Below are positions 491 through 30,407 of a stretch of 32,000 nucleotides of DNA, one piece after another. Position 1 is the stretch's first letter, and every line of letters begins with the position of its first letter. The notes beneath the pieces were generated by a model. It was not told the origin of the DNA. It did not search any database and saw only the letters and a list, made by a program, of their open reading frames with translations. Source of the stretch: Candidatus Iainarchaeum sp. (GTDB taxonomy: Archaea; Iainarchaeota; Iainarchaeia; Iainarchaeales; JACQJH01); contig JACQJH010000002.1 of assembly GCA_016205145.1 (NCBI GenBank), positions 480,001-512,000 on the forward strand. Direction: 5' to 3'. The translations under genes were made by a program, and so were the position numbers.

Positions 491-548
491 AGCAGATGGG
501 TATTGCAACGGCAATACCCGTCGTCGCTCCACGCAGCCGAAACTGCGT
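491..548 (+). repeat. Modular hairpin repeat unit (linker gcagatgg, H1, linker cgtcgtcg-ctcc, H2)
   Basis: H1 is GGGTATTGC aacg GCAATACCC (498-519). H2 is ACGCAG ccgaaa CTGCGT (531-548). The same linkers and H1 recur at 13056-13090 and 30270-30358, and H2 recurs at 6568-6585 and 30363-30380. Confidence 0.85.
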
Positions 549-583
549 AAAGTTAAAAACATCTATCATGGACTTCTTGTACT

Positions 584-612
584 GCCGGCTTTCCGGCTTG
601 TTTTGCTTTTTT
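584..612 (+). terminator. Terminator-like hairpin plus T-rich tract between truD and the GT4 gene
   Basis: GCCGG cttt CCGGC (584-597) is followed by ttgttttgctttttt (598-612). It sits only about 11 nt before the ATG at 624, so it could also act on the GT4 leader. Confidence 0.35.
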
Positions 613-623
613 GAGGGAAATGG

Positions 624-1586
624 ATGCTGCCTTGGGCGCTGCTGTTCGCGGTTTCGTTTGTTCTTGCGGCAATCGCTGTTTCGGTTGTCGCAAAATTCAA
701 CGCGAAAAGGAACATTGTCGGCGTTGACATAAACAAGCGTGACCAGGCAATGGTGCCTGAAAGCACTGGCATAGCCTTGCTTCCCGTGCTTTTCGCGGTT
801 TCGTTTCTTTTCCTTGCCAAGCCGCTTGGCGGAAACATCTGGGCATGGCTTTTAACCATGGGCGCATTCACGGGGATCGGATTTGCCGGCGATTTCAGCC
901 AGCGCGTCCTGAACAGGGAAATTCCATGGACTGTGAGGGCAGCCGCCATCGCTTTTGTGTCCTTGGCGTTCGCATTTTTTTATTCGCAGGAATTCGATCC
1001 CTGGCCGTTGTGGCTGGTTTTGTTTTCGCTTTACATTGCAGGCATTGCCTCTTTCCAGAACACTTTCGCGGGCCTGAACGGCTGGGAAGTTGGTTCGGGC
1101 TTCATCATTTCAGTTTTTGTCGCCTTGCTGCTTGCTCCGACAAGGCTTTTCTGGCCGGCGATTGCCTTGAGCGGCGCGATTCTGGGCCTGCTGTTTTTCA
1201 ACAGGTTTCCGGCAAGGGTTTTTCCCGGCGACAGCGGAACCCTGCTCATGGGCTCGGCGATGGCGTCCCTGCTTTTGATGTCCCAGGACCTGGCGATAAT
1301 CGTTCCCGGATTCCTGTTCTTTTTGCCGCACGCGATCGACTTTTATGTCATAAAGCTTGGAACGAACCGCGGGGACGCGACGCAGAAAAAAGCCAAGCCG
1401 TATTCAGTGGGCTTTGACGGAAAGCTTTCAGTGCCGGGCAACGGAAAATCGGGCCTCGACTTCGCCAAAGTCATCATCCGCGCATTCGGCCCGCTGGAAG
1501 AATGGAAAATCGTCGCGATAATCTGGTTTGTGGTGGCGGCAAACTGCGCGTTCTGGTTCTACGTTTTTTCCCGCATCATACTGTGA
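624..1586 (+). CDS. Glycosyltransferase family 4 (MraY/WecA/AglH-like polyprenyl-phosphate sugar-1-phosphate transferase)
   Basis: Polytopic membrane protein. Has DINKRDQAMVPESTGIAL and FPGDSGTLLMGSAMA motifs typical of the MraY/WecA superfamily. ATG at 624 is preceded by GAGGG (613-617). Confidence 0.7.
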   Translation: MLPWALLFAVSFVLAAIAVSVVAKFNAKRNIVGVDINKRDQAMVPESTGIALLPVLFAVSFLFLAKPLGGNIWAWLLTMGAFTGIGFAGDFSQRVLNREIPWTVRAAAIAFVSLAFAFFYSQEFDPWPLWLVLFSLYIAGIASFQNTFAGLNGWEVGSGFIISVFVALLLAPTRLFWPAIALSGAILGLLFFNRFPARVFPGDSGTLLMGSAMASLLLMSQDLAIIVPGFLFFLPHAIDFYVIKLGTNRGDATQKKAKPYSVGFDGKLSVPGNGKSGLDFAKVIIRAFGPLEEWKIVAIIWFVVAANCAFWFYVFSRIIL

Positions 1587-2548
1587 GTGCCTGCAATGGC
1601 GGCGAATGCCAGGCTTAAAAGCGTCGGAATGACTATCCTGACAACGCCGAAAACCACCATGATTGCGCCGATTTCCGCGAATGAAAGCATTGCATTTGAA
1701 AACGCGGGAACGGAAAGGTAAGCGAAGCCTGCCGCCTCCACCAGGCCGATGCCGCGCGGCAGGAACGGCGCCCGTTCAAGGATCGAGGCGATGACAAAAA
1801 GCGCGATCGCCGAGGCAAGCGGAATTGAAACGCCCACTGCAAAAAAGCTGTACAGCAAGGCGAGGAATTCAAAAAAAAGCGAGAGGGCGCTGAGCAAAAA
1901 AACCCATACAAAAAGCCGCAGGCTTATGCGCTTCAGGTAAGCAGAATAATTCGAAAAAAAATCCGCAGCCCTGGACAGCAGGGAAAATCTTTTGGATGCG
2001 TGCCTGAAAAAAGCCGCGATCGCCCGGCCGAAGCGCTCGTTAAGCGGCAGCAGGAACAAGGCGCTTGCCGCCGCGACCATGAAAAAGCCGGACAGCAGGG
2101 CAAAAAACACGAATGGCGGAAGGCTTGAATTGAAAAGCAGGGAAAACGAGACCAGGAGGGAGAGCACGAAGATTGCAAAGAATTTCATGCCCTTGACAAG
2201 CATTGACGCTGCAAGGGAATCCCTGAATGGAACGCCGAAATGCCTTTTCAGCTGCACCGAACGCAGGTAATCGGAGCCCACCTGAACCGGTGAAACCGAA
2301 CCGTAGACGGACGCACAGCCCAAAAAAAAGGCTTTACGGAAAGGGGTTTTGGAGCCGTTTTTTACAAGAATGGCCCACGAAAAAACCCAGATAACCACGC
2401 TGGCGAGGAAAAAAACTGCCGCGGCAGCGAAAAAAAGCGGGTTTGTTGCCTGCAATTCGCCAAAAGCGTTGGTTAGGGTTGAAAGCACGCCCAAAAGCGC
2501 GAAAAAGACCAAAACAACCAGGACTGCCTTGCCAAAACCGCTCTTCAA
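1559..2548 (-). CDS. Polytopic membrane protein, flippase-like / LPG-synthase-TM (UPF0104)-like
   Basis: 329 aa with about 8 hydrophobic helices and family-like composition. Apparent TTG start at 2548 overlaps the upstream stop (TTGA, 2545-2548). Its 3' end overlaps the convergent GT4 gene by 28 nt. Confidence 0.45.
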   Translation of the reverse strand: MKSGFGKAVLVVLVFFALLGVLSTLTNAFGELQATNPLFFAAAAVFFLASVVIWVFSWAILVKNGSKTPFRKAFFLGCASVYGSVSPVQVGSDYLRSVQLKRHFGVPFRDSLAASMLVKGMKFFAIFVLSLLVSFSLLFNSSLPPFVFFALLSGFFMVAAASALFLLPLNERFGRAIAAFFRHASKRFSLLSRAADFFSNYSAYLKRISLRLFVWVFLLSALSLFFEFLALLYSFFAVGVSIPLASAIALFVIASILERAPFLPRGIGLVEAAGFAYLSVPAFSNAMLSFAEIGAIMVVFGVVRIVIPTLLSLAFAAIAGTHSMMREKT

Positions 2549-3192
2549 GCAGCGCCACCAAGCCTTGAACCAACAGCGTTTGTCTTGTCGATTATTTCCT
2601 GCGCATTGGAAAACATTGCAAGCAGCACCAGCCTTGAAAGTTCCGGAATTTCCCGCTCATTCGAAGGCAATATCAGAATCTGGTTACCCGAAACCACAAC
2701 TGCTGGATTTTGCCTTGACGCGTCCGGAAAGTCTATGACAATCCTCACGCTCCTGCCATCAGACAGCATTGCGGAGCATTCGGCAGGGGAAACGGTTTTG
2801 CTTGAATTGAAATCGCCGAAATTTGAAATGCATTCCTTTAAGGCGCCGGTTCCGGTGAAAACCTGCAAAAGCTGGGTCGTGTCCTTCCTGTTCCCGGACA
2901 GCACAACAATGAATGCATTGAGGCCGTTGCTCATGAACGTGTTAACGCCGCCGGCTTCAGCGAGCTTGGGCGAAACGACAAACGAGACGCTTTCCCCGGC
3001 TTTGCCGAAAAACGCGTTCGGGTCAACCTCATTCGAAACAAAGGCCACTTTTTCCCCGCTTTTAAGCATGCCAAAAGCCGAATACTTCGGCGCAAACAAT
3101 CCCGCATACACGGCAGCGCCCGCGACAATGAAGACAAGCAGCAGAATCGAGGCAAGATTGAACTTCGAAAAAACACTGGACTTTTCAGGCAT
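2545..3192 (-). CDS. Hypothetical N-terminally membrane-anchored protein
   Basis: Start moved to ATG at 3192 (MPEKSSVFSKFNLASILLLVFIVAGAAVYAG, one TM helix). The longer listed ORF (to 3279) only translates the hairpin repeat at 3225-3280 (NQPDETGF). Confidence 0.55.
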   Translation of the reverse strand: MPEKSSVFSKFNLASILLLVFIVAGAAVYAGLFAPKYSAFGMLKSGEKVAFVSNEVDPNAFFGKAGESVSFVVSPKLAEAGGVNTFMSNGLNAFIVVLSGNRKDTTQLLQVFTGTGALKECISNFGDFNSSKTVSPAECSAMLSDGRSVRIVIDFPDASRQNPAVVVSGNQILILPSNEREIPELSRLVLLAMFSNAQEIIDKTNAVGSRLGGAA

Positions 3193-3224
3193 AAAAAACA
3201 ACTCATACTGCAAAAAGATTAAAA

Positions 3225-3280
3225 AGCCGGTTTCGTCCGGCTGGTTCGACGGCAGGTATTGCTTACGCAATACCTGCAAG
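3225..3280 (-). repeat. Modular hairpin repeat unit, inverse orientation (H1 plus H3)
   Basis: On the plus strand: AGCCGG tttcgt CCGGCT (3225-3242) and CAGGTATTGC ttac GCAATACCTG (3253-3276). The reverse complement of 3225-3250 is identical over 26 nt to 13087-13112. Confidence 0.85.
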
Positions 3281-3328
3281 CATTAAAGATTTCGGGGGTT
3301 TGCAGGGGGTGAAACTCCGGCGGAAGCT

Positions 3329-3395
3329 GGGAAAGAAAAAATAAAAGAAAAAGAAAAGAAAAAAAAGAAAGGAAAAAGGGAAACAAGGTTTCCCC
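3329..3395 (-). terminator. Hairpin plus long multi-oligo(T) terminator of the S-layer-like gene
   Basis: In minus sense, 12 nt after the stop comes GGGAAAC ctt GTTTCCC (3378-3394). An approx 50-nt almost pure pyrimidine tract follows, with runs of T5, T8, T4, T5, T4 and T6. Confidence 0.6.
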
Positions 3396-3407
3396 TTTTC
3401 AGACTAC

Positions 3408-6235: not shown

Positions 6236-6242
6236 TCACCTC
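6236..6242 (-). promoter_or_regulatory. Shine-Dalgarno-like site of the S-layer-like gene
   Basis: In minus sense, GAGGTGA lies 8 nt upstream of ATG 6227. Confidence 0.6.
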
Positions 6243-6525
6243 ACAATCTTACGAAGGATATTGTATGTATGAATAAAAAACAAGCCCGGCAACCCGCCCC
6301 CAAAACCACTGAAGGCAAAGGTCAGTCAGACCATTCAATACTTATCAAGTCAACTTATTTAAATACCTTTCCGTCCCAAAAAAAAGCTTAAAAAGCGCTT
6401 ATTTTGGGAAAACAAGCCCAAAATTTACTGCTTTTGCAGAAGACCTGTTCGTCAATTTACGAACCATGTACCAGCAGGGACTGGCCTCTCGCACACCCAC
6501 TGACCCCCGAAATCGTTAATACGCC

Positions 6526-6586
6526 TACTCGGCGTATTGCGCTAGCAATACGCCTTGGTTTCGCTCCGCGCAGCCGAAACTGCGCC
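6526..6586 (+). repeat. Modular hairpin repeat unit (linker tactcgg, H1, linker ccttggtttcg-ctcc, H2)
   Basis: GGCGTATTGC gcta GCAATACGCC (6531-6554). GCGCAG ccgaaa CTGCGC (6568-6585) ends 2 nt from the stop codon complement at 6588-6590. Confidence 0.85.
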
Positions 6587-6587
6587 G

Positions 6588-7235
6588 TTATTTCTTGTGC
6601 AACTCGCGATTGAAGCTTTCCAGCTCCTGCCGGTTCATCAATTTAGTAATATATTCAGTATAGCCTTGAACCATGTCGGACAGGTCAATCAGGCCGTCCT
6701 GCAAGTCCTGCGCCGGAAACGTTATTTTGTCCGGTTTTATGACCTCGACCGAGATTGGGCCGAAGAAAATCATGAATCGCACAAGCGCAGAGAAGGTTTT
6801 CACGGAAAAATTTACGTCAAGGAACGAAGAATAGTAGTCATTGCTTTCCATTTTTTCAATCGGCGCCTTTTCAAGCGAGTAAACAAGGTAGTTTTTGTCA
6901 CTGGAAAGCGATTTTCCAAGCTTGTCGAGGTGCTCTTGGACCAGTTCTTGGGTTATTGCCTGGATTTCAACTATTCCGCGTATGCGCAGCTTGTTCGTGT
7001 CCTCTTCTTCAAGCTTTTTGCGCCTTGAAACCTCTTCCACTATGTTTCCATGCAGGGAATACCTTGTCGGCGCCCCGCCTTTGTCCGCGAGCCGCAGTTT
7101 GAGCATCATTCTCAGGGTATCGGTGACAACCGGCAGGCTTATGCTTAGGCTTTCGCTGATTTCTTCGGCTGTTCTGGGGCCTTCCCTGAGCAGGAATGCT
7201 GCTATCTGTTTCTGTTCCTTTGAAAAGCTCGGCAT
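6588..7235 (-). CDS. Winged-helix (TrmB/MarR-like) DNA-binding protein with uncharacterised C-terminal domain
   Basis: Start moved to ATG 7235 (MPSFSKEQKQIAAFLLREGPRTAEEISESLSISLPVVTDTL is an HTH-like N-terminus). A TATA-like box lies 23 nt upstream. The listed longer N-terminus runs into the repeat array. Confidence 0.5.
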   Translation of the reverse strand: MPSFSKEQKQIAAFLLREGPRTAEEISESLSISLPVVTDTLRMMLKLRLADKGGAPTRYSLHGNIVEEVSRRKKLEEEDTNKLRIRGIVEIQAITQELVQEHLDKLGKSLSSDKNYLVYSLEKAPIEKMESNDYYSSFLDVNFSVKTFSALVRFMIFFGPISVEVIKPDKITFPAQDLQDGLIDLSDMVQGYTEYITKLMNRQELESFNRELHKK

Positions 7236-7258
7236 AATTGAGTTTGGGCGGCAAAATG

Positions 7259-7266
7259 TTTTAAAA
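7259..7266 (-). promoter_or_regulatory. TATA-like box (TTTTAAAA) for the wHTH gene, leaderless geometry
   Basis: 23 nt separate the box from ATG 7235. Confidence 0.4.
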
Positions 7267-7267
7267 C

Positions 7268-7565
7268 GCAGGGGCTTTCGCCCCTTGCACGCTCCCAAAA
7301 ACAACCTGGCTTACTCGGCTTATTGCAATAGCAACAAGCCTTGGTTTCGGACCCGGCGTGCGAGCAAAAGCGAACGCAGGGATTGCACCCCTTGCAAACC
7401 CCGAAAGCTTTAACGGAATACTCGGCATATTGCGTAGCAATATGCCTTGGTTTCGGCACACGCGATCGAAAACGCGTCCGGACGAAACCGGCTCCGAGCA
7501 AAGCGAGGCGGCGCTATGCGAGCAAAGCGAGCATAGTGCGTCGGCACACCCGCTCGAAAGCGGGT
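7268..7565. repeat. Approx 300-nt array of at least 8 GC-rich hairpin modules
   Basis: H6 7268-7288. tactcgg-H1 7312-7340. H6-like 7376-7395. tactcgg-H1 7419-7446. ACGCG..CGCGT 7460-7477. Truncated H3 7478-7493. GCGCTATGC..GCATAGTGC 7511-7539. ACCCGCT cgaa AGCGGGT 7548-7565. The motif gcgagcaaa(a)gcga occurs three times. Confidence 0.85.
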
Positions 7566-7574: not shown

Positions 7575-7582
7575 AATAAATA
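7575..7582 (+). promoter_or_regulatory. TATA-like box (AATAAATA) for the small membrane protein gene
   Basis: 22 nt upstream of ATG 7605. Confidence 0.4.
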
Positions 7583-7604
7583 CTTTGCCGCACAATTCTT
7601 TTGC

Positions 7605-7928
7605 ATGGGCCTTTTCTTGTTGCAGGCTTCCGATGCGATTGCCAATGCGGGAAGCGCTGGTTCCGCCATTGCCGAAAAGGGATTGCAGCTTGCCGGCAAC
7701 CCGGCAATTCTTGTGGCGGGCGTTGTGCTCATCATTGCGGCCGTGCTCATTTTCGTTTTCCTGAAAAAGATCATCGTGAACTCGGTTGCCGGCCTGGCCG
7801 TCTGGGCAATAGTTTCATTCGTCTTCCACGTCAACCTGCCGTTCATTCCAAGCCTGGTGATAAGCATTGTTTTTGGCCTGGCGGGAATCGGCGCGCTTCT
7901 GCTGGCGAAATTCCTGGGCCTGTTCTGA
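7605..7928 (+). CDS. Small integral membrane protein (possibly BofA-like)
   Basis: 107 aa from ATG 7605 with 2-3 hydrophobic helices (IIVNSVAGLAVWAIVSF, SLVISIVFGLAGIGALLLAKFL). The listed ORF from 7341 merely translates the repeat array. Confidence 0.5.
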   Translation: MGLFLLQASDAIANAGSAGSAIAEKGLQLAGNPAILVAGVVLIIAAVLIFVFLKKIIVNSVAGLAVWAIVSFVFHVNLPFIPSLVISIVFGLAGIGALLLAKFLGLF

Positions 7929-8009: not shown

Positions 8010-9284
8010 TTGGAATCCTTTGACTGCGATTTGCATTTCCACGGCCTGTATGCCGGCGGGGTTTCAAAATTCATGACAATCCCGGTGATAGCGGATCAGG
8101 CCAAGCTGAAGGGCCTCAGCCTGGTTTCCACTGCCGACATCACTCACAGGAAATGGTTCGAACATGTCAAGGAAAACCTTGTCGAAGAGGAAAACGGCGT
8201 GTTTTCGGACAAGGCGGGAAAAACGCATTTTGTCGTTGGCACCGAGGTCGAGGATTCGAAGCGCGTGCACCATCTGCTGTTTTTTCCCGACCTTTCCTCG
8301 GCGCAGACTTTCAGGGAAAAAGTTGCGAGGTTCGGCGTACTTGACTGCGTGATGTGCGGCAGGCCAAAACTCAGGCTTTCCGCTGAAACGATTGCGGAAA
8401 TCGCGGACGGCTGCGGCGGCATTTTCGGGCCCGCGCATTCCTTCACGCCTTACACCGGCATTTACGCGCATTTTGATTCATTGAAGCAGGCGTATGGCCA
8501 GATGCATGAAAAGCTTTCTTTCATCGAGCTTGGGTTGAGCGCGGACTCGTATTTTGCGGACCTGATCCAGGAAAACCATGATTATGCGTTTCTCACTGCA
8601 TCGGACAGCCACAGCCCGTGGCCTTACCGGATTGGAAGGGAGTTCTCGCGCATGAAACTCAAAAAGCCGTGCTTTGACGAAATCAAAAAGGCTTTGGCCA
8701 GCCGGGGCGAAGGACTCATTGAACTGAATGTCGGCTTGGACCCGCGCGAAGGAAAATACCATGCGACTGCCTGCAATGCCTGCTTTGCAAGGTTTTCCGC
8801 GGAAGACGCGAAAAGGTTTGACTGGAAATGCCCGAAATGCAGGGGCCAGATAAAAAAAGGGGTCAAGGACCGCATACTTGAGCTTGCGTCTTTCAGCCAG
8901 GAAATCCACCCGGATTTCCGGCCGGAATACTTCCATGCAATTCCGCTCGCCGAAATAATCCAGCTCGCATTGGGGGCGAAGGATGTCAAGGCAAAGGAAG
9001 TGCAGGGCCTGTGGCTTGAAATGGTTGAAAGGCTCGGGCCTGAAACCGGAATCCTTGTCGACGAACCCATTGTTTCGGTTTCAGAGATAAACGAAAGCGT
9101 TGCCAAAAAAGTTGAAAGCTTCCGCAACGGCTGGGTCCACTACATTCCCGGCGGCGGGGGAAACTATGGCAGGCCGGTCATCTGCGATTCAAAGGAAGAG
9201 TTTGAAACAAAAAAGCTGGAACTCGAAAGGCAGGAAAAAGGCTTTGGCATGAAAGGCCAGAAAACCCTGAAAGAATTCGAGTGA
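8010..9284 (+). CDS. endoQ: Endonuclease Q-like protein (PHP-domain nuclease with zinc ribbon)
   Basis: N-terminal DLHFHG and STADITH PHP-type metal motifs, plus TASDSHSP. CNAC...CPKC zinc finger. About 424 aa, as in archaeal EndoQ. TTG is the only start codon in the open frame, because an in-frame stop lies at 7995-7997. Confidence 0.65.
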   Translation: MESFDCDLHFHGLYAGGVSKFMTIPVIADQAKLKGLSLVSTADITHRKWFEHVKENLVEEENGVFSDKAGKTHFVVGTEVEDSKRVHHLLFFPDLSSAQTFREKVARFGVLDCVMCGRPKLRLSAETIAEIADGCGGIFGPAHSFTPYTGIYAHFDSLKQAYGQMHEKLSFIELGLSADSYFADLIQENHDYAFLTASDSHSPWPYRIGREFSRMKLKKPCFDEIKKALASRGEGLIELNVGLDPREGKYHATACNACFARFSAEDAKRFDWKCPKCRGQIKKGVKDRILELASFSQEIHPDFRPEYFHAIPLAEIIQLALGAKDVKAKEVQGLWLEMVERLGPETGILVDEPIVSVSEINESVAKKVESFRNGWVHYIPGGGGNYGRPVICDSKEEFETKKLELERQEKGFGMKGQKTLKEFE

Positions 9285-10884: not shown

Positions 10885-10936
10885 AAAAACCAGAACAAAA
10901 GAATTGCAACAAAAACAGTATTTTAAAGGAATATGT

Positions 10937-11139
10937 AGCCGTCACGCCCGGCTAGTGCGAACTAAGGCTTATCATGGCAAAATCGCGATTTTGCCATGTG
11001 CCCGGAATCTTGGGATTCCGGTGCATGCCGCTGCAATAAGCCGAGTAAGCTTTTTGCAAATAAGTGGCGTTGCAACAGCAACGCCACGCAAGGGGCGTGC
11101 GAGGGGCGAAAGCCCCTGCCTGCGCGCTGTTGCGCGTGA
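10937..11139. repeat. Approx 200-nt nested array of hairpin modules
   Basis: H3-like 10937-10953. Outer stem GGCTTAT (10966-10972) pairs with ATAAGCC (11036-11042) and encloses the 26-nt palindrome H5 (10973-10998) and H4 (11002-11021). Inverse tactcgg at 11041-11047. H1 11064-11087. Inverse H6 11099-11119. Inverse H7 11120-11138. Confidence 0.85.
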
Positions 11140-13025: not shown

Positions 13026-13033
13026 ATAAAAAA
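13026..13033 (-). promoter_or_regulatory. TATA-like box (TTTTATTA) for priS, leaderless geometry
   Basis: 24 nt upstream of ATG 13001. Confidence 0.4.
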
Positions 13034-13055
13034 GGTGCCGGGCACCCAACACAAA

Positions 13056-13112
13056 GCAGATGGGTATTGCAATGGCAATACCCGTCGTCGAACCAGCCGG
13101 ACGAAACCGGCT
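13056..13112 (+). repeat. Modular hairpin repeat unit (linker gcagatgg, H1, linker cgtcgtcg-aacc, H3)
   Basis: GGGTATTGC aatg GCAATACCC (13062-13083). AGCCGG acgaaa CCGGCT (13095-13112) ends immediately before the stop codon complement at 13113-13115. Confidence 0.85.
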
Positions 13113-13328
13113 TCAGCCGCGCTTTGAGCCTATTATGGACGCAGATGAAAGTATTGCCGCCGACAGCACAACAAAGTTCGCTTCGGGCGAGAAACCCAGG
13201 AGCTTTGCCGCAATCGAGATTATCGCAAGGTTTATGCCGAATGAAACCAGTCCGACGACCAGAAGCACGAACGCAGTCAAAACCACAAACGCAAGAGTTC
13301 CGACGCCAAGAGAAGCCCAGAAGCCCAT
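13113..13328 (-). CDS. Small hydrophobic protein (2 predicted TM helices)
   Basis: 71 aa from ATG 13328. SD-like GGGGTGG (13334-13340) lies 5 nt upstream. No recognisable family. Confidence 0.45.
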   Translation of the reverse strand: MGFWASLGVGTLAFVVLTAFVLLVVGLVSFGINLAIISIAAKLLGFSPEANFVVLSAAILSSASIIGSKRG

Positions 13329-13385
13329 CAAAACCACCCCAAAAAAAGCCGAAGCTTTCAGGAAGAATGAAAAGCGGAAAAATTT

Positions 13386-14516
13386 TTAAACGCTGTTTTC
13401 CGTGCTTTTTGGAAGCGGGGTTGCCGCAGTGCCATCATTGGCTGCTTTTTCCACGCCATTGGCGTTGCCCGTGCCATCCGTGCCGGCCGGGGCTGGCGGG
13501 GCGTTTTTTTTGCCGGAATCCTTTTTCAGTTCGCGCTGGTAAAACGAGACGGGATGGGAAACATTGCAGTCTTTTCCTTTCGGGCAAAAGCCGTATTCCC
13601 TGACTTTTTTGCACGCCGGCGCGGACATCTGCTTTCCTACAATCCTCTTGACCTGGTATGCGGTCATCTTGCGGCTGAAATTCGGGGTTTTCGAGTAAAG
13701 CTCGACTATGTCCTCTTCGGGCATGCCGATTGACGACAAGAAGGCGGCAATGAAAAACCTGCCCATGTGCGGAACGTTTTTCCCTTCCAGCAAATCAGAG
13801 TAAAGCGATGCCATGCAGTCCGGAAAAAGGTTGGGGTCGATTTTGCCCGACAGCTTGAGCTCGAAATCGCGTTCGCGCAAAGAGTTGAGGTGCGAGGAAA
13901 CCTGCGACGCAATGCGCTTGAACGCGTTCGGCACTGCCGGCTGTTGGCCGGAAACGGATTCGAAAACGTTCCAGTAAACCTTTTCCGCCAGGAAATGGCA
14001 GAACCCATTCTCGTCGAAAAAAACCCTGCCATCGGAAACCTTCTGGTTGACAAGCTTGAGGCTTTCGTCCCTGAAGCCTATGGACAGAAAATCCGGCAAT
14101 GCAACTGAAACGAAAAAATCGGGGGAATCGGAAAGCGATGCGCTTATGCCAAGTTCGCCTGCAAGCTCCTGCGATGCCTTGCCGCGGTCCGGCTCATCCT
14201 GCAAATTCTTAAACGTGTTTTTTGCGGTCCACGAGGCGAACTTCTTGTCCGCCTGCCCGTTTTTCATCTGCCCGAGAATGATTTTGGCGGCCGGAAAAGC
14301 CATTATTTCGCGTTCAAGGATTTCCTCCGATGAAACGTGTTCCAGGGGCTGCTGCTTGTCCTTCCACGCGCTCACGATCATGAAGACCGCGCGCTCTATT
14401 ACGGGCCTGTTCTCGGCGGTTTCGTCAAGCGAAACATTGCTGTCCTTCAGTATGCGCATTGCGGCTGAGGAAAAAGGGTATTTCTGCGCGAACAAAAGAT
14501 CCTGCGAAACCGGCAT
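13386..14516 (-). CDS. priL: DNA primase large subunit PriL
   Basis: Has YPFS near the N-terminus. FPDCM...HMGRFFIAAFL...YQVKRIVG...CKKV...GFC...C is the PriL Fe-S domain pattern. ATG 14516 is preferred because the TATA-like box at 14541-14548 lies 24 nt upstream. The listed ATG 14552 would include that box. Confidence 0.8.
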   Translation of the reverse strand: MPVSQDLLFAQKYPFSSAAMRILKDSNVSLDETAENRPVIERAVFMIVSAWKDKQQPLEHVSSEEILEREIMAFPAAKIILGQMKNGQADKKFASWTAKNTFKNLQDEPDRGKASQELAGELGISASLSDSPDFFVSVALPDFLSIGFRDESLKLVNQKVSDGRVFFDENGFCHFLAEKVYWNVFESVSGQQPAVPNAFKRIASQVSSHLNSLRERDFELKLSGKIDPNLFPDCMASLYSDLLEGKNVPHMGRFFIAAFLSSIGMPEEDIVELYSKTPNFSRKMTAYQVKRIVGKQMSAPACKKVREYGFCPKGKDCNVSHPVSFYQRELKKDSGKKNAPPAPAGTDGTGNANGVEKAANDGTAATPLPKSTENSV

Positions 14517-18601: not shown

Positions 18602-19453
18602 TCATGCGGGAACGGAAACGGCAAGGTTGTCTATGAGCCTTGTCTTTCCGATGCGGCACGCGCAAAGCAAAACAGCCCCGCCTCGGATTTCCTTCAGCTC
18701 CGACAAATCCTTGGCATCGCGCACGGCGAAATACTCGGGCTTTGCCAGCGGCTCTTTCCCAAAAAAGCCTTTTGCAAAACCTTCAACCTCTGCGGGGCTT
18801 TTTTCGCCCGCCAGAATTTTTTCCTTTCCAGCGTTGAGCGCGCGGAACAAAACAGTTGCCGCTTTCCTCTCCCGCGCATCCAGGCGCGCGTTCCTGCTCG
18901 AAAGTGCCAAACCGTCTTTTTCGCGCACTGTCGGGCACACGACAACCGTGACAGGCAGGCTATGCGCGCGGACCATTTCTTTGACAACCAAAAACTGCTG
19001 ATAATCCTTATGGCCGAAGTACGCCTTGCCCGGAGAAACAATTTCGAAAAGCCTTTTGACGACCGCGCACACGCCCGCAAAATGCCCCGGCCGGAATTTT
19101 CCCTCAAGCGTTTCCGCAACGGCGGGCGGCTTTACATCGGCATTGGTGCCGTGCGGATAGATTTCCTTTTCGGTTGGCGCGAAAACAAAATCAACTTTTT
19201 CCTTTTCCAGCAGGCCGAGGTCTCTTTGCAAATCGCGCGGATAATTTTTCAGATCGCTCTTGTCGTTGAACTGCATCGGATTCACAAAAATCGACACTAC
19301 GCAAAAATCGTTTTCCTGCCGGCATTTGCGCACCAATGACAAATGGCCTTCGTGCAAGGCGCCCATTGTGGGAACGAAGCCGACGCTTTTTCCCGGCTCA
19401 TTCAGACGGGCGGCAGCCGCACGCATTTCCTGCGCGGATTTTACGACCTGCAT
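18602..19453 (-). CDS. panC: Pantoate--beta-alanine ligase (pantothenate synthetase)
   Basis: Has FVPTMGALHEGHLSLV plus FVNPMQF and GHKDYQQ motifs. Confidence 0.85.
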   Translation of the reverse strand: MQVVKSAQEMRAAAARLNEPGKSVGFVPTMGALHEGHLSLVRKCRQENDFCVVSIFVNPMQFNDKSDLKNYPRDLQRDLGLLEKEKVDFVFAPTEKEIYPHGTNADVKPPAVAETLEGKFRPGHFAGVCAVVKRLFEIVSPGKAYFGHKDYQQFLVVKEMVRAHSLPVTVVVCPTVREKDGLALSSRNARLDARERKAATVLFRALNAGKEKILAGEKSPAEVEGFAKGFFGKEPLAKPEYFAVRDAKDLSELKEIRGGAVLLCACRIGKTRLIDNLAVSVPA

Positions 19454-19481
19454 GGAATAAAGCTTGCGGAAAAAGGATTTT

Positions 19482-20297
19482 TTAATAGCTGTATTTTTTG
19501 CTTGGAAATTTCCCGCTTTTTACCTGATTGCCGAATTTTTCCGCTGCGCCGGAAATCTTTCCCCCGAGGTTGTCGAACCGCTTCACGAATTTCGGCTGGA
19601 AATCCGGCAGCAGGCCGAGAATGTCGTGCAGCACCAAAACCTGTCCATCACAGTGCCTTCCCGCGCCGATGCCGATTGTCGGAATGGCAAGGCAGTTAGT
19701 GATTTTTTTTGCGAGGCCGGACGGAACGCATTCCAGAACAAGCGCGAAACAGCCTTCCCTTTCAAGGCAGAGCGCGTCCTGCATAATTTTTTCCGCTTCT
19801 TCGGCATTCCTGCCTTTCACGGAAAAGTTTTCCGCTGTCTGCGGAGTCAGGCCGAGATGGCCGATGACCGGAATGCCGGCATCGCGGATGGCTTTTGCTA
19901 TGCCATCGGAAAAGCCTTCAATTTTCACGCAATGGCAGCCTGCTTCCGAGAATTTTTTCGCGTTCTCGCCTGCAAGGTTTGAGTTCGTGAAAGAGCCGAA
20001 CGGCATGTCCCCGATCACAAAGGATTTTTTGCACGCCCTTGCGACAGCCGCGGAATGCCGGAGCATTGTTTCCATTGAAACCGTCGAGGTTTTCGGCTCG
20101 CCGTAAACCACGTTGTTCAGGGAATCTCCGACAAGCAGGGCGTCAACCTTCGCGTCGACAAGCCGTGCAAAGGCATGGTCGTAGCAGGCAAGCACGGAGA
20201 TTTTTTCGCCGGACTTCTTCATTTCGGCAAACTTTTCGGAAATGTGCATGAAAAGCTTGTGCTGGAACAATTTGAAAAAGCTATTTGTCCCGCTCAC
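19482..20297 (-). CDS. panB: 3-methyl-2-oxobutanoate hydroxymethyltransferase
   Basis: Has ISVLACYD...LLVGDSLNNVVYG...DMPFGS...VKIEG...GHLGLTPQ. GTG 20297 overlaps the PCNA-B stop (GTGA). The alternative start is ATG 20249. Confidence 0.85.
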   Translation of the reverse strand: MSGTNSFFKLFQHKLFMHISEKFAEMKKSGEKISVLACYDHAFARLVDAKVDALLVGDSLNNVVYGEPKTSTVSMETMLRHSAAVARACKKSFVIGDMPFGSFTNSNLAGENAKKFSEAGCHCVKIEGFSDGIAKAIRDAGIPVIGHLGLTPQTAENFSVKGRNAEEAEKIMQDALCLEREGCFALVLECVPSGLAKKITNCLAIPTIGIGAGRHCDGQVLVLHDILGLLPDFQPKFVKRFDNLGGKISGAAEKFGNQVKSGKFPSKKYSY

Positions 20298-21040
20298 TCT
20301 GATTCTATGCGCGGCGCAAGGAAATAGGTTATGTCGGCCTTGCCGACCTTGTAGTTGACCTGGATGGGCGCGTTTGTTTTGAGGAAAACCTTGACTTCGG
20401 TGTCAGAGGAAGCGGTTTTGAGCATGTCGGAAAGGTAGTCCAACGGGAACATGCTTTTAGCCTCGTCTTTCACTTTCATTTCGGTTATCGCCTTGTCGTC
20501 CTTCTGGGTTTCGCTGTTCAGTTCGCCCTTGCTTGAATGCGCCCTGACAAAAAACTTTTTGTTCTCGATGCCCAACGAAACGTGCGTTGAAATGAGCGCG
20601 GAATCCTTGAGCGCGTCCTGCAGGACCGAAGCCTTCATTGAAAGTTCCGCGTCGAAGTCTATGCGCGGACTCGGCAATTCGGAAGCGGAAATGTCTATCA
20701 AAGGCATGGAAAATTTTCTCACGGAAGAGCCCTTGAACGTGACGCTCAGATAGTTCTTGTCGTCCTCCAATGCCAGGTGCAGTTCGTCGCCGGCCTTCGA
20801 CCTGGACATTATCTGGCCCAGGTAATCGAGGTCCAGGCCGAGCTTGGTTTTGCCGTCCAAATCGAATTTTTTGAAGGAATCCTTTTTGAGCGAGAAGTCG
20901 ACCATTGAAATCTGGCTTGGGTCGGTCGCCCTCAATGACAAACCATTGGCGTCGAAGATGAATTCGGCCTCGTCGATCAGGACCGCGATTGAGTCGATGC
21001 ATTTCTTGAAATCGTCGGCCTTTTCGAGCACTACGTCCAT
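20294..21040 (-). CDS. pcn: DNA polymerase sliding clamp PCNA, paralog B
   Basis: 248 aa. Has ATDPSQISMVDF, VRKFSMPLIDIS, FPLDYLSDMLK and a canonical YFLAPRIE C-terminus. Confidence 0.8.
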   Translation of the reverse strand: MDVVLEKADDFKKCIDSIAVLIDEAEFIFDANGLSLRATDPSQISMVDFSLKKDSFKKFDLDGKTKLGLDLDYLGQIMSRSKAGDELHLALEDDKNYLSVTFKGSSVRKFSMPLIDISASELPSPRIDFDAELSMKASVLQDALKDSALISTHVSLGIENKKFFVRAHSSKGELNSETQKDDKAITEMKVKDEAKSMFPLDYLSDMLKTASSDTEVKVFLKTNAPIQVNYKVGKADITYFLAPRIESE

Positions 21041-21116: not shown

Positions 21117-21222
21117 TACTCGGCGTGCCGCACAGCGGCACGCCTTGGCTCCGAACCAGCCGCAGTTGCGAAGCCAGCGCCATGCAATGCATGGTGCGCG
21201 TACCAGCCGGACGAGACGGCTG
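21117..21222 (+). repeat. Hairpin module array (tactcgg-H1 variant, H8, H3 variant)
   Basis: GGCGTGCCGC aca GCGGCACGCC (21122-21144). CCATGCA a TGCATGG (21180-21194). CAGCCG gacgaga CGGCTG (21204-21222). Lies 14 nt from the stop at 21237. Confidence 0.8.
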
Positions 21223-21236
21223 CGGACGGAAGCGGC

Positions 21237-25006: not shown

Positions 25007-25016
25007 TTTATTAATA
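25007..25016 (+). promoter_or_regulatory. TATA-like box (TTTATTAATA) for the DUF373 gene
   Basis: 24 nt upstream of ATG 25041. Confidence 0.4.
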
Positions 25017-25040
25017 AGCGCGTTGGCTTTTTGTGATAGC

Positions 25041-26261: not shown

Positions 26262-26296
26262 TTCTTTCACATTGCCTGAAATTTAATACAAAAAAA

Positions 26297-26407
26297 GCAG
26301 ACGGGTATCGGGCAAGCGGAATCGTCCAACCAATCACGCGCAACAGCGCGCAGCTCCATGCGAATGAAATGAGCATGGGGCGTCGGACCAGCCGGACGAA
26401 ATCGGCT
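26297..26407 (+). repeat. Hairpin module array (gcagacgg linker, H7, H8, H3)
   Basis: CGCGC aaca GCGCG (26337-26350). CCATGC..GCATGG (26356-26378). AGCCGG acgaaa TCGGCT (26390-26407) overlaps the lonB stop complement by 1 nt. An A7 run lies at 26290-26296. Confidence 0.8.
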
Positions 26408-28350
26408 TAATGCGCGGATTTTTGGGAGACCTTTTCAATATTTACGCCGCTAATCGACGGCAGGCTTTTCAGTATTTTTTTGAGCGACAGCAGCATTGAA
26501 TCCTTTTTCCTGGATTTCTCGAAAGCGTTCGCCAGCACGTCGGACAATGTCGAAACGGAAATTATTTTTATTTTGGCGAGTTCGGCTTCAGGCAGGACTA
26601 TGTCCTCGCGGTTGGCCTTGGGCACGATGACTTCCTTGAAGCCCGCGCGGATTGCGGCGTGCACTTTTGAAGTAACGCCCCCGACGGGAAGCACTTCGCC
26701 GCGGACGGAGAGGCTGCCTGTCATTGCCAGGCTCTGCTTTACCGGAATGCCTTCAAGCGCTGAAATCACTGCCGTTGCGACGGACACCGAAGCGGAATCG
26801 CCTTCGACCCCTTCATAAGTCTGCAAAAACTGTATGTGCAGGTCGTGCTGGCTTATGTCCTTGCCGGAAATGCGCTTGATTATTGCGGAAACATTCTGCA
26901 CGGCTTCGCGCGCAATCTCCCCAAGCTTTCCGGTCGCAATGACCCGGCCCTCGGACTTTGAAGCTGCCGGCGCGATTTCGGCCTCGATCGGCAGCACAGT
27001 GCCCGCACTCCCGTCACCGGAAACTGCGAGGCCGTTGACCCTGCCGACAACCGCGCCCTCTGAAAGGTAAACTTCGTATTCGCGCTTGCTGTCGATTATC
27101 TTGTCAACCATCTGCTGTTCCAGCGTTCTTGCGGACATCTTTGCCTCGATGACGTCCTGCGCCTCGACAAGCGAATGGCTTTTCTCCTTTGCAATGTCGC
27201 CGGCCGCCCTGACAAGGCCGCCCAAATCGCGCAGTTTCAGTGTCAGCCTGACTTTCCTGTCGGCGCGCCTGCGCGCCTCGAAAATTATCAGGTCAACGGC
27301 TTCCCTTGAAAAGTGCGGAATCTTGCCGTCCTTTTTGATTTCCTGGCAGACGAACTGCACTATCTTTGACCTGTTTTCGGGCGTGTCCGGCATGTCAATG
27401 TTCATGTAAACCTCGTAGCCGTAGCCCCTGATCCTTGAACGCAGGGCGGGATGCACTTTTTCCAAATCACGGTAGTTGCCCGCCGCGACAAGCACGAAAT
27501 CGCACGGCACGGGCTCGGTTCTCGTCATGGCGCCGGAGGACATTTCGCTCTGCCCCGTAATCGCATACTTTTTTTCCTGCATGGCCGTAAGCAGTTCCTG
27601 CTGTGCCTTGTATGAAAGCGTTGCAAGCTCGTCGACAAACAATACTCCGCCCGAAGCCTTGTGAATGAGGCCCGGCTCGACGCGCAGATGCGGGGGCGTG
27701 CCGAGGCCGCCTGACTGTAACGGGTCGTGGCGGACGTCGCCGAGCAGTGAGCCGGCCCTCGCGCCCGTTCCTTCAAAAAACGGCGCAAGCTTTTTGCCTG
27801 CATTGTCAACCAACAGCTTGGGCGTCCTTTTTTCCTCGCGGCTCCTCATCTGGTTGCCGACTGCAAAGCCCACTATCAGGAAGCCGCCCAGAATCATCAT
27901 CGCAGCCACGATCACGTCAGGCGCCCACTTGAAAAAATAGACGACCCAGACAATCAAAAACCAGCCCAGCGGAAACAGCATTGAAACGAGCCTGAAATTG
28001 TCGTCCGCGTGCTGTGCTTCAATCCTTTCCTTGTTCAAAATTTTCTGGCCCTCGCCCGCAGGAACCGGCCTCACCTTGGGATTGTTGGGATCAGTGTCGT
28101 TCGGGTAAATGAGTATGTCGCTCAGCTTCTGCACGGGCAGGACTTCCGACATTGCCAATGCAAGCATGCTCTTGCCTGTTCCGGGCTCGCCCACCAGAAG
28201 AACGTTTCTTTTCTGCGCGGCCGCCTTTCGGATGATGTCAACGCTCGAATCCTGGCCGATGACCTGGTTTATGGTCTTGTCGGAAACCGGGATTTCGGCT
28301 GTGGACCGGAAATTGAGGAAATCGGCCTTGTGCGGGGAAGACTTAGGCAT
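26407..28350 (-). CDS. lonB: Archaeal membrane-bound Lon protease (LonB)
   Basis: 647 aa from ATG 28350. Has Walker A GEPGTGKS, two TM helices inserted in the AAA+ module ([32 protein letters not shown]) and the protease motif EGDSAS. The listed 104-aa N-terminal extension looks non-coding. Confidence 0.85.
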
Positions 28351-28372
28351 TAAAAGAGTTAGCCAAAAAAAC

Positions 28373-28382
28373 ATTAATAAAT
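28373..28382 (-). promoter_or_regulatory. TATA-like box (ATTTATTAAT) for lonB
   Basis: 22 nt upstream of ATG 28350. Confidence 0.4.
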
Positions 28383-28399
28383 CAATCGCAGGCCCGGCG

Positions 28400-28487
28400 A
28401 AAAAACCGGAAAAATACGGCAAAACGCGAAGGCAAAAAAAGCGGAAAAACAGCCGCAAAAAAAAACAGGGCGGATGCGGGTAAAAAA
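28400..28487 (+). promoter_or_regulatory. Strand-asymmetric phased A-tracts in the lonB / rnz divergent spacer
   Basis: A6 28400-28405, A5 28410-28414, A4 28421-28424, A7 28434-28440, A5 28445-28449, A9 28457-28465, A6 28482-28487. They are separated by short G/C blocks. Confidence 0.5.
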
Positions 28488-28504
28488 GTCTCAAGGGTTT
28501 TTGA

Positions 28505-29413
28505 ATGAATGCCAAAATAACCGTTCTGGGCACGAGCTGTTCTAATCCCACAAAGGAAAGGAACCTTTCAAGCGTCTGCCTCGAATTTGCAGGCAAGACG
28601 CTTTTGTTCGACTGCCCGGAGGGAACGCAGAGGCAGATGATGCTGGCAGGCGCGTCATACATGTCCGTCGACTATGTTTTCATCAGCCACTTCCACGCCG
28701 ACCACGTGCTCGGCCTTCCCGGAATGCTGGCAACAATGAGCATGCAGGGCAGGGACTGGCCGTTGCACGTCTTCGGGCCGCACGGCATTGAAAGGCAGAT
28801 GGAAAAAGTGCTGAGCCTCGGCCTGCTGAAGCAGGGCTTTGAAATAATCTGCCACGAAGCGAAAAACGGCGGGATTCTCGCTGAAAAGGATTTCACCATC
28901 GAAGCTGTCGGGTTAAGGCATGAAGTGCAGTGCTTCGGCTTCGTTTTCAGGGAAAAAAACAAGAGCGGCGAATTCCAGAGGCAATGGGCGGAAAAGCTCG
29001 GCATACCGGAAGGGCCGTTGTGGAGCAAACTGCAGAAAGGCGAAAACGCCGAGGCGAACGGAAAAACTTTCAGGCCCGAAGACGTGATGGACTATTCGAA
29101 GGGAAGGAAGGGAAGGAAAATCTCCGTCATCATGGACACTTTGCCGGACGAAAAATATTTCCAGGCGATAATGGATTCCGACCTTTTGATTCACGAGTCA
29201 AGCTTTTTGCAGAAGCATGCGGAAAGGGCGAAGGAAACGAAGCACTCCACTGCAAAGCAGGCCGCGGAAGTCGCAAAAAAAACCAATGCGAAAAAACTCC
29301 TGCTTTTGCACATCAGCCCGCGCTACCGCGGCGAAAAGGAAATGGAAGAGGAAGCGGAAAAGGTTTTCCCGCACGCGATTGTGGCGAGGGACCTCATGCA
29401 AATCGAAATCTGA
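28505..29413 (+). CDS. rnz: Ribonuclease Z (tRNA 3' endonuclease)
   Basis: Has ITVLGTS...NLSSVCLE...[13 protein letters not shown] and [14 protein letters not shown] (HxHxDH). Length about 300 aa. Confidence 0.8.
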
Positions 29414-29448
29414 ACAAAAAAAGTTTCACTTCAAGCGGAAGGCAATTG

Positions 29449-30159
29449 CTATTTCAAATTGAAGGTTTGCCCCGGCGCGAGAATGACCGGCTTTGTTTTC
29501 AGGATGCTTTTCTCTATTTTCTGCCTGAACTCCTGCGGGTCCTGCTTTATGGTCTCGAAAGTGTTGTAGTGCATCGGAATCACATAATCCGGCTTCATTG
29601 TCTTGGTCGCGCGCACAGCATCGACGCAGTCCATTGTCTCGTTGCCGCCGATGGGCAGCAATGCGACGTTCGCCTTTATCTGCGAGAAGGTGTCCAAAAG
29701 CTGGGTGTCGCCGGCATGGTAAACCGTTGTTGTGTCGTCCGAAATCAGGAAACCCATCGGATAGAATGACTGGGGGTGATGCGCGTGCACGGCTTCGATG
29801 TGAAGGCCCCTGCAATTGATTTTTTTCGCAGTGTCAATCGAGTGCATCATCGGCTTCTGGAGCGAAAGCTGGTTCAGGATGGAATCGTGCGCCACAACGC
29901 ACGCGTTCGTCGACCTTGAGAGCCTTTCCACCATCTTCGGCTCGAAATGGTCGAAATGCTCGTGCGTTATGAGTATGACATCGGCCTTTTTCACGTCTTT
30001 TTCGGCGACCGGGCACTTTACGATGCGCTTGAACTCGCTGTTATGCGCGCAGACAAAAAAAGGGTCCACAAGGACGGTCTTGCCGGAAAAGTTGAGTTTG
30101 AAAAAAGCGTGGCCCAAAAACTGTACTTTCAGCGCCAAACAAACCACACCATTAATCAT
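29449..30159 (-). CDS. Metal-dependent hydrolase, MBL fold (UPF0173-like)
   Basis: Has VQFLGHAFFKL...VLVDPF...ILITHEHFDHF...YHAGDT. The start may be a downstream TTG/GTG (30138-30147) because the TATA-like box at 30173-30182 is only 13 nt from ATG 30159. Confidence 0.65.
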   Translation of the reverse strand: MINGVVCLALKVQFLGHAFFKLNFSGKTVLVDPFFVCAHNSEFKRIVKCPVAEKDVKKADVILITHEHFDHFEPKMVERLSRSTNACVVAHDSILNQLSLQKPMMHSIDTAKKINCRGLHIEAVHAHHPQSFYPMGFLISDDTTTVYHAGDTQLLDTFSQIKANVALLPIGGNETMDCVDAVRATKTMKPDYVIPMHYNTFETIKQDPQEFRQKIEKSILKTKPVILAPGQTFNLK

Positions 30160-30209
30160 ATTGAACCGAGAGGAATATTAATACCTACTTTTCCTGCAGG
30201 CAAAAAAAA

Positions 30210-30397
30210 GCAGATGGTTACTGGGCGAATGCGACGCACCGGAACCCCAAGATTCTGGACACGTCCAAAGCAGATGGGTATTGCATCAGCAATGCCCCAG
30301 AATCCTAAGATTCTGGGCACGTCGCAAAATCCAAGATTTTGCGAAGTACCCGTCGTCGCTCCACGCAGCCGAAACTGCGTCCGGACGGAATCACCGG
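30210..30397 (+). repeat. Approx 190-nt composite hairpin array with an apparently interrupted H1-H2 unit
   Basis: gcagatgg occurs twice (30210-30217, 30270-30277). H4-like 30239-30258. H1 30276-30297. H4 30296-30317. H5 30323-30343. ccgtcgtcg linker (30349-30358 region). H2 30363-30380. H3 variant 30381-30397. Confidence 0.85.
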
Positions 30398-30407
30398 CTT
30401 GGAAAAC

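Follow-up and report, generated by a model that had tools for sequence, protein, structure and literature searches.

Hairpin-forming intergenic repeats in an Iainarchaeota genome as a probable lineage-specific, non-autonomous repeat family

Nine intergenic spacers in a 32,000-nt stretch of Candidatus Iainarchaeum sp. DNA (assembly GCA_016205145.1, contig JACQJH010000002.1, positions 480,001–512,000; this whole stretch is called the window) carry cassettes of modular GC-rich hairpins. The cassettes probably represent a lineage-specific, non-autonomous, hairpin-forming repeat family that was inserted into intergenic DNA. A preliminary description of this DNA had offered three natures for them: a mobile palindromic family, structured RNA or 3'-end elements, and protein-binding sites. 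The mobile family is favoured by an orthologous empty site in the closest relative, by the excess length of occupied spacers and by the nesting of modules, while the RNA or 3'-end reading is weak.

Hairpin cassettes are confined to intergenic spacers

The cassettes take up 1,215 nt, or 3.8% of the window and about 38% of the non-coding DNA within it; 31 perfect hairpins (stem of at least 5 bp) were counted in them. The elements are somewhat larger than described before, when their total was given as about 1.1 kb. The hairpin vocabulary said to be shared by all nine spacers was found again: hairpins were read in each of them, and the linkers GCAGAYGG, CGTCG(TCG), TACTCGG and CCTTGGTTTCG are nearly confined to the cassettes. 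On the forward strand, 5 of the 6 window occurrences of GCAGAYGG lie inside the nine spacers, as do 3 of the 5 occurrences of CGTCGTCG on both strands and all occurrences of CCTTGGTTTCG (3/3) and CGCAGCCGAAACTGCG (3/3). A repeat finder recovered the shared blocks in direct (D1, D2, D4, D6, D7, D17, D19) and inverted (I1, I4, I5, I8, I10, I23) orientation. Both pairs reported earlier as exact reverse complements, 26335–26353 with 11120–11138 and 3225–3250 with 13087–13112, are correct.

All spacers longer than 140 nt are occupied (9/9), and none of the spacers shorter than 111 nt is (0/22). After subtraction of the elements, the occupied spacers measure 32–117 nt, with one of 266 nt, and the unoccupied spacers are similar in length. 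Perfect stems of at least 8 bp are concentrated in the intergenic 9.9% of the window (14 of 15, binomial p = 1e-13). For GC-rich stems of at least 8 bp, the window has 11, versus at most 5 in each of the 80 loci that were collected from relatives (1.3 Mb). With corrected gene starts, no element overlaps a confident coding sequence in the window, in agreement with the preliminary description, and its statement that the modules are only intergenic and occur in both orientations also holds. A covariance model of linker plus tail hairpin scored its ten training copies at 23–41 bits and the next match at 11.6 bits, and it found no copy in the coding DNA of the window.

No stop codon occurs in any of the six reading frames of the canonical A-type 60-nt units. 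Therefore, the elements create or lengthen spurious open reading frames (ORFs) and shift apparent gene starts upstream. Spurious or extended ORFs were seen at 2545–3279, 6588–7304 and 29947–31266, and also in the regions 481–732 and 13060–13389 and others, so the elements are an annotation hazard.

Spacer lengths and an empty site in relatives

The closest available relative, about 80% identical at the nucleotide level, was found through the gene for the alpha subunit of phenylalanyl-tRNA synthetase (PheRS-alpha), located just right of the window, whose homologue on an ENA contig (L086) is 85% identical at the amino acid level. L086 aligns to the window at 27962–30192 and 30401–31258 with 75–83% nucleotide identity, on both sides of the cassette numbered 9 below. 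Between these blocks, the window has 208 nt (30193–30400) versus 24 nt, TTTTGCGGGCGCAAAACGCCGTTC, in L086, and the flanks of L086 match the window, the left one including an A-run and the right one GGAAAACTATTTATAC. By this alignment L086 has the orthologous empty site for cassette 9. No target duplication is visible in this comparison of one filled and one empty site.

Gene order around LonB is conserved across Iainarchaeota and was used for comparing spacer lengths. The LonB/DUF373 spacer is 145 nt versus a median of 1 nt in relatives (element 113–114 nt), and for the sec/MBL spacer, with an element of about 193 nt, the values are 300 nt versus 90 nt. The excess approximates the element length in 2 of the 3 comparable occupied spacers, and the third, hyp257/PCNA2, gave no clear result. 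The six element-free spacers have lengths similar to those of relatives.

No module was matched in the 1.3 Mb from the 80 relatives, either by BLAST or by the covariance model of linker plus tail hairpin. The absence of matches outside the window suggests a lineage-specific family, which is the usual pattern for mobile families. Among these loci, the two with the most repeated 13-mers were considered as carriers of an analogous family and rejected. One of them, L076, owes its repeats to Glu-rich coding sequence; in this Nanoarchaeota single-cell genome, positions 7779–7914 also hold a GC-rich unit of 68 nt that is duplicated in perfect tandem (97% identical). The other, L053 (Meg19_1012_Bin_505, a distant Iainarchaeota relative with 33% GC), contains an unrelated AT-rich array at 19421–19591, composed of four tandem 40-nt hairpin copies (AAACCTTTTAGAAAAAGGTTT plus linker). 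This array occupies the hyp257–PCNA2 spacer, which is orthologous to the spacer of cassette 7, and its sequence is unrelated to the window modules.

The hairpin rather than its sequence is preserved

The basic unit is a 60-nt frame composed of a head, the hairpin H1, a linker and a tail hairpin. Frame A consists of AAAGCAGAYGG, H1 (GTATTGC-N4-GCAATAC), C(C)GTCG(TCG), NNCC and the tail hairpin. Frame B consists of TACTCGGC, H1, the linker GCCTTGGTTTCG (GCCTTGG(T/C)T(T/C)CG), NNNC and the tail hairpin. The tail hairpin has a variable stem of 5–6 bp, usually with A at the opening and T at the closing, and a conserved loop NCGAAA, around which the stem variants CGCAG, GCCGG, CCCGC and CGCG were found. 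About eight hairpin types (H1–H8) had been distinguished before. The hairpins are real, but H2 and H3 are not separate types; together with several unnamed hairpins they make up this single NCGAAA-loop tail class.

In the alignment of ten tail hairpins, 88% of the cells are paired and 5 of the 6 pairs are altered on both sides. The covariation score was 0.574 versus 0.207 in shuffles, none of 500 shuffles reached 0.574, and slid controls gave only 13–36% pairing. H1 also occurs in fully compensated versions within unchanged flanks (GGCGTGCCGC-aca-GCGGCACGCC at 21122–21144). Covariation is also seen in the outer stem of the two H5 copies (TCG/CGA versus CATG/CATG), the H5 of cassette 5 being the compensated variant. 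These compensated stems in fixed flanks indicate that the hairpin, rather than the duplex sequence, is preserved.

The individual modules are stem-loops of 14–26 nt. Accessory modules (the H4–H5 pair, H6, H7, H8 and a module U) adjoin the frames or sit inside H1. Module U, CAAACCCC(C)GAAAKCTTTAAY, was absent from the preliminary description; it lies at 3280–3322 (minus strand), 6504–6525 and 7375–7418, ahead of the frames in three cassettes. The A frame is conserved in 5 copies, and its interior is either the H1 apex or a 54–62-nt insert of other hairpins. The H4–H5 pair was found at two different positions, one in an A frame and one in a B frame: in cassette 9 it separates H1 from the CGTCGTCG linker and is accompanied by a TGCCC/TACCC duplication, and in cassette 5 it is nested in the apex of the B-frame H1. 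In cassette 8, H7 and H8 replace the A-frame interior, and cassette 7 has an H8 insert with duplicated ACCAGCCG on its flanks. The composition of the nine cassettes is as follows.

Cassette 1, 489–548, plus strand: canonical 60-nt A frame, 27 nt past the TruD stop codon; head AAAGCAGATGG; H1 GGGTATTGC-aacg-GCAATACCC at 498–519; linker GTCGTCGCTCC; tail hairpin ACGCAG-ccgaaa-CTGCGT at 531–548.
Cassette 2, 3225–3322, minus strand: U module at 3280–3322; A' frame with extended H1 GCAGGTATTGC-gtaa-GCAATACCTGC; tail hairpin AGCCGG-acgaaa-CCGGCT at 3225–3242; flanked on one side by the terminator-like T-run of the S-layer gene, on the other by the TATA-like box of the gene at 2545–3192.
Cassette 3, 6504–6585, plus strand: U module at 6504–6525; B frame TACTCGGC-H1-GCCTTGGTTTCG; tail hairpin GCGCAG-ccgaaa-CTGCGC at 6568–6585, ending 2 nt from the stop codon (6588) of a minus-strand helix-turn-helix (HTH) gene.
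Cassette 4, 7268–7565, plus strand: 298 nt in a divergent spacer; reversed H6 at 7268–7295; first B frame at 7312–7349; GAGCAAAGCGAG-type module at 7360–7377; U at 7375–7418; second B frame at 7419–7455; two more GAGCAAAGCGAG modules at 7494–7536; three tail hairpins at 7460–7477, 7478–7493 and 7539–7565; bounded, as read by eye, by putative TATA-like boxes TTTTAAAA at 7258–7265 (minus-strand gene) and AATAAATA at 7577–7584 (plus-strand gene).
Cassette 5, 10936–11139, minus strand: 204 nt in a divergent spacer, mostly reverse-oriented; tail hairpin TAGCCG...CGGCTA at 10936–10954; H5–H4 pair at 10973–11021, nested in the B frame; B head at 11030–11050; variant H1 GTGGCGTTGC-aaca-GCAACGCCAC at 11064–11087; H6 at 11088–11119; H7 at 11122–11139.
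Cassette 6, 13053–13112, plus strand: canonical A frame; tail hairpin AGCCGG-acgaaa-CCGGCT at 13095–13112, directly adjoining the stop codon (13113) of a 74-aa minus-strand membrane ORF.
Cassette 7, 21117–21222, plus strand: B frame with fully compensated H1 (GGCGTGCCGC-aca-GCGGCACGCC); H8 insert at 21177–21199 between duplicated ACCAGCCG; tail hairpin CAGCCG-gacgaga-CGGCTG at 21204–21222.
Cassette 8, 26294–26407, plus strand: convergent spacer; A head AAAGCAGACGGGTAT; interior of H7 at 26334–26353 and H8' at 26354–26380; A linker CGTCGGACC; tail hairpin AGCCGG-acgaaa-TCGGCT with one G-T pair, the last base lying within the LonB stop codon.
Cassette 9, 30207–30399, plus strand: 193 nt in a divergent spacer; A head at 30207–30221; solo H4 at 30237–30262; second A frame at 30267–30380 with the H4–H5 pair at 30296–30344 between H1 and the CGTCGTCG linker; tail hairpin at 30363–30380; extra CCGG...CCGG hairpin at 30381–30399; followed by a putative TATA-like box CTATTTATAC at 30407–30416.

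Short-read contigs cross the cassettes

Logan contigs from the runs SRR12113383, -84 and -85 carry the window genes. Alignment of five of them (L001, L002, L083, L084 and L085) showed 100% identity to the window. The contigs span the whole of cassettes 2, 3 and 7 and part of cassette 4. Cassette 7 (on L001) and cassette 2 (on L083) were checked and are 100% identical to the window, and L087–L089 were assigned to cassette 3 and part of cassette 4 by their coordinates only. The sole bases of L001 that mismatch the window are at 6729–6746, where the contig terminates in CTGTCTCTTATACACATC; they are accounted for by this remnant of a Nextera adapter.

Some short-read contigs end inside cassettes, as would be expected if the cassettes were artefacts or chimeras of the assembly: L002 stops at 21227, L084 and also L085 stop at 30351, L083 begins at 519, and L087–L089 begin at 7428. 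These breaks coincide with a 34-nt block common to cassettes 1 and 9, or with the palindromic H1. They arise because 31-mers in the window are common to several copies or are palindromic, and repeats of this kind fragment k-mer and short-read assemblies. In contrast to an artefact, contigs from three runs cross the cassettes named above, with L001 and L083 identical to the window. Read-derived contigs across the junctions, which the preliminary description had named as the check, effectively refute an assembly origin, and we regard it as extremely improbable.

Database searches with the modules

The search of Rfam that had been proposed earlier gave no match to a described RNA family in the window, at the gathering thresholds or even at E ≤ 1. 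The exact patterns of A head plus H1 and of linker plus H3 tail had no occurrence in GTDB genomes and JGI metagenomes, the source genome not being among them. Four module patterns had no match in IMG/VR, and no module was matched in phage and plasmid records. When 15 stop-free six-frame unit peptides were concatenated and searched against a database of 5.8 billion proteins, no match was obtained at E ≤ 10. The elements were also rejected as tRNA, tmRNA or Rfam families, as the searches of the window were empty, and as independent small RNA genes, as no consistent TATA-like box was read at a fixed distance upstream of the heads.

Position relative to genes and promoters

Three cassettes lie in divergent spacers, one in a convergent spacer and five in tandem spacers, where 2 run sense and 3 antisense to the transcription on their flanks. 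The three largest cassettes (298, 204 and 193 nt) appear to sit between the TATA-like boxes of divergent genes, the boxes being placed by eye, and such a position would probably leave these copies outside any mRNA. Three tail hairpins are located 0–2 nt from the stop codons of minus-strand genes, at 6588 (HTH protein), 13113 (74-aa membrane ORF) and 26407 (LonB), and the final T of the tail hairpin at 26407 belongs to the LonB stop codon. Folding of cassettes 4 and 9 is much stronger than that of shuffled sequence on either strand (z = -4.3 to -5.7), with the minus strand only slightly more stable and no clear strand preference. Mixed orientation and the lack of a fold-strand preference fit elements that act as DNA and not as transcripts.

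These data also bear on a role at the RNA level, in which hairpins in the 3' or 5' untranslated regions of mRNA would stabilise it against the exosome, aid termination or regulate translation. Transcript-level roles of this sort have been proposed for many bacterial REPs. Covarying stems, a conserved loop, strong folding, the three elements beside stop codons and an encoded exosome subunit (Csl4) are consistent with such a role. However, the largest cassettes are probably outside mRNA, the tandem copies show no sense bias and neither strand is clearly favoured energetically. Units lack a consistent promoter, and the Rfam search was empty at E ≤ 1. Moreover, L086 is without cassette 9 at the orthologous site, so at least that copy is dispensable. 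An RNA-level function is therefore unlikely.

Duplex DNA could be recognised instead, if a dimeric regulator, a chromatin or insulator protein or a segregation factor bound palindrome arrays between promoters. In 7 copies, H1 forms a perfect inverted repeat of fixed spacing (TATTGC-N3/4-GCAATA), the large cassettes seem to sit exactly between core promoters, and the HTH gene (6588–7235) has B frames on both flanks. In contrast to binding sites of fixed sequence, the stems change yet stay complementary (GTATTGC, GTGCCGC and GCGTTGC in H1; CGCAG, GCCGG and CCCGC in tails). At least eight unrelated hairpin types travel together, copies are also present in convergent and 3' spacers, and the elements are absent from all relatives searched, including the orthologous L086 site. 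We consider duplex recognition quite unlikely.

Several non-family hairpins are found near the cassettes. Downstream of the S-layer gene (minus strand), a perfect hairpin GGGAAAC-aag-GTTTCCC at 3378–3394 precedes about 50 nt of T-rich sequence (A/G-rich when read on the plus strand); this region (3325–3394) resembles a strong terminator and has no relation to the repeats. Terminator-like sequences also adjoin cassette 1 (583–613, GCCGG-cttt-CCGGC, then T-rich) and cassette 6 (13030–13046, minus strand, GGTGCCCGGCACC followed by TTTTTT). Upstream of the S-layer gene, 264 nt of AT-rich, element-free DNA (6240–6503) with an AT hairpin ATTTTGGG-n8-CCCAAAAT at 6401–6424 form the sole long spacer remainder that is not an element, which may correspond to a long leader or to the region of a strong promoter.

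How the repeats may have spread

In the reading as a mobile repeat family, copies would have been inserted into intergenic DNA and into one another, giving BIME-like mosaics. Their spread would take place at the DNA level, most plausibly through single-stranded hairpins and an enzyme that recognises them and whose gene lies in another part of the genome. The leading candidate would be a Y1/HUH transposase of the IS200/IS605 type, because of the end hairpins, the lack of terminal inverted repeats, the lack of a target duplication at the one site compared, the A-run before every A head and the conservation of structure over sequence. Copies would persist only where they are harmless, that is, between stop codons and terminator T-runs and between divergent core promoters, and a host function would not be required.

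Spread without a dedicated enzyme is an alternative, by template switching at palindromes, slipped duplication, or gene conversion and recombination between spacers. The many orders of modules (A+H2, A+H3, B+H2, B+H3-like), the short duplications flanking inserts (TGCCC/TACCC, ACCAGCCG/ACCAGCCG) and the lack of a transposase nearby are in line with it, and bacterial CGTC-tagged REPs are also without a dedicated transposase (PMC3733652). Such processes do not readily account for near-identical 31–60-nt units lying 12–30 kb apart in unrelated spacers, or for a whole 190-nt cassette that is present or absent as a block in comparison with L086, and template switching leaves the conserved unpaired linkers unexplained. 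Enzyme-free spread is accordingly held to be improbable. The RNA-level, duplex-binding and enzyme-free explanations are all weaker than that of a mobile repeat family.

Several points weigh against the mobile family. A single empty site cannot tell gain in the window lineage from loss in the relative. No transposase domain or HUH gene was detected among the ORFs scanned in the window plus 3 kb to its right (35 kb); these domain scans bear out the earlier statement that the window has no transposase. The 3 kb right of the window (on L084) contain no copy of the element. The AAA before the A heads may be part of the element, in which case it is no proven target-site rule. Module shuffling could come from recombination between copies instead of repeated insertion, and the conserved unpaired linkers and NCGAAA loop could reflect selection for a host function.

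A more specific and rather doubtful extension is an archaeal hairpin-specific insertion system unrelated to RAYT/REP. Its enzyme would read the NCGAAA-loop hairpin and the linkers on single-stranded DNA and insert 60-nt frames beside A/T-runs and into hairpin apices, and the mosaics would make up several percent of a genome of about 1 Mb, or would have been co-opted as insulators between packed promoters. DPANN archaea have very small, tightly packed genomes. If the share of about 38% of non-coding DNA holds genome-wide, the family amounts to several percent of the genome.

Host and neighbouring genes

The window has a GC content of about 52%. Its LonB is 100% identical to NCBI MBI4053544.1, from a metagenome-assembled genome (MAG) of 'Candidatus Diapherotrites archaeon', and the window is therefore placed in Iainarchaeota; the closest GTDB relatives of this LonB are only 75–79% identical. 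The host lineage is thus Iainarchaeota (Diapherotrites, DPANN), represented by an uncultured MAG that probably comes from groundwater, and the archaeal gene context recognised in the preliminary description is confirmed. The window encodes TruD, an S-layer protein, aIF2-alpha, PAC2, the small and large primase subunits, two PCNA paralogues, Csl4, RpoL, LonB, RNase Z and others.

The PCNA paralogues (14999–15724 and 20294–21040) are less than 5 kb apart and adjoin both primase subunits, and a PanB-PanC-M17-PanK-like block sits between them. The ORF at 8010–9284 (424 aa, start MESFDCDLHFHG, CxxC...CPKC motifs) has no Pfam match; it may resemble the archaeal endonuclease Q (PHP-like). In the 3 kb right of the window (L084, 1462–2459), PIN_6, PIN and MazE-like genes form a toxin-antitoxin cluster between membrane-protein genes and PheRS-alpha, which is kept in the relative L086.

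Comparison with known repeat families

The preliminary description had likened the cassettes to REP, BIME and MITE elements. The likeness stands insofar as the elements are only intergenic, modular and present in both orientations, but membership of any named family fails. Their behaviour is REP/BIME/PATE/MITE-like, but the full set of defining features was not found for any of these families.

Like REPs, the elements are short GC-rich extragenic palindromes which are species-specific, lie in either orientation, are often clustered and show compensatory stem changes; all 31 hairpins are in the nine spacers and none is in coding sequence. REPs associated with RAYT are imperfect palindromes of 20–40 bp that number more than 100 per genome and flank a RAYT (Y1 transposase) gene. 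The REP tags are not a feature of the family, as 5' GTAG precedes 0 of 31 hairpins and 5' CGTC precedes 2 of 31. CGTC does occur near hairpins here (GTCGTCG after H1, CGTCG-NNCC before the tail hairpin). In CGTC-tagged REPs, this motif is directly 5' of an 8–9 bp stem with a 4–5 nt loop (Di Nocera et al. 2013, PMC3733652), whereas here it is 3' of H1 or 4–5 nt upstream of the tail, and membership was rejected on this geometry. The units are also two-hairpin frames, in contrast to the single palindromes or inverted doublets of REPs and REPINs. Tagged REPs were reported only in 8 bacterial phyla, and no dedicated transposase is known for those with CGTC (PMC3733652). The host here is an archaeon and no RAYT was present among the 35 kb read. 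To our knowledge, no RAYT-type system has been described in archaea.

The BIMEs of E. coli are likewise extragenic mosaics of palindromic units with few conserved linkers and variable order and number, and the cassettes share the mosaic build and the limited set of conserved linkers. BIMEs are described as sitting in transcribed extragenic regions, not between divergent promoters, whereas the three largest cassettes are in divergent spacers. Palindromic units of BIMEs alternate in orientation (PMC2817692). In contrast, the oriented modules of the cassettes (heads and NCGAAA loops) are co-directional within 7 of 9 cassettes, and there is no sequence similarity to BIMEs.

PATEs and other IS200/IS605 derivatives are resembled in the hairpin at each unit end (subterminal, from H1 to the tail), the lack of terminal inverted repeats, the lack of target duplication at the one empty site, that of cassette 9, and the non-autonomous nature. 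Elements of the PATE type insert 3' of a fixed tetra- or pentanucleotide and show a strand bias relative to replication. AAA precedes all 5 A heads, although it may belong to the element, and the B heads have no common flank. Seven of the nine cassettes are on the plus strand, a bias that is not significant. Unlike PATEs, the unit measures just 60 nt, neither TnpA nor TnpB was found within 35 kb, and pairing of guide and cleavage site is not demonstrable.

With MITEs, the elements share small size, lack of coding capacity, intergenic location, lineage specificity and nesting, and with pneumococcal BOX elements they share modularity. In contrast to MITEs, they have no terminal inverted repeats (unit ends have at most GCAG/CTGC in common), no target-site duplication at the one site compared and no parent insertion sequence that was recognised in the window or in the phage, plasmid and viral collections. 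A survey has catalogued MITEs of the inverted-repeat type, at high density in some DPANN genomes and with up to 1.23% MITE in its densest prokaryotic genomes (PMC11602168), and for archaea there are counts of loosely defined 'REPs' (PMC12306157). Small repeats are therefore nothing new in kind in such genomes; the frame-plus-cargo design with the NCGAAA loop matched nothing searched. With its clean architecture and an empty site in hand, this family is a tractable case for REP/BIME-like DNA spread in archaea.

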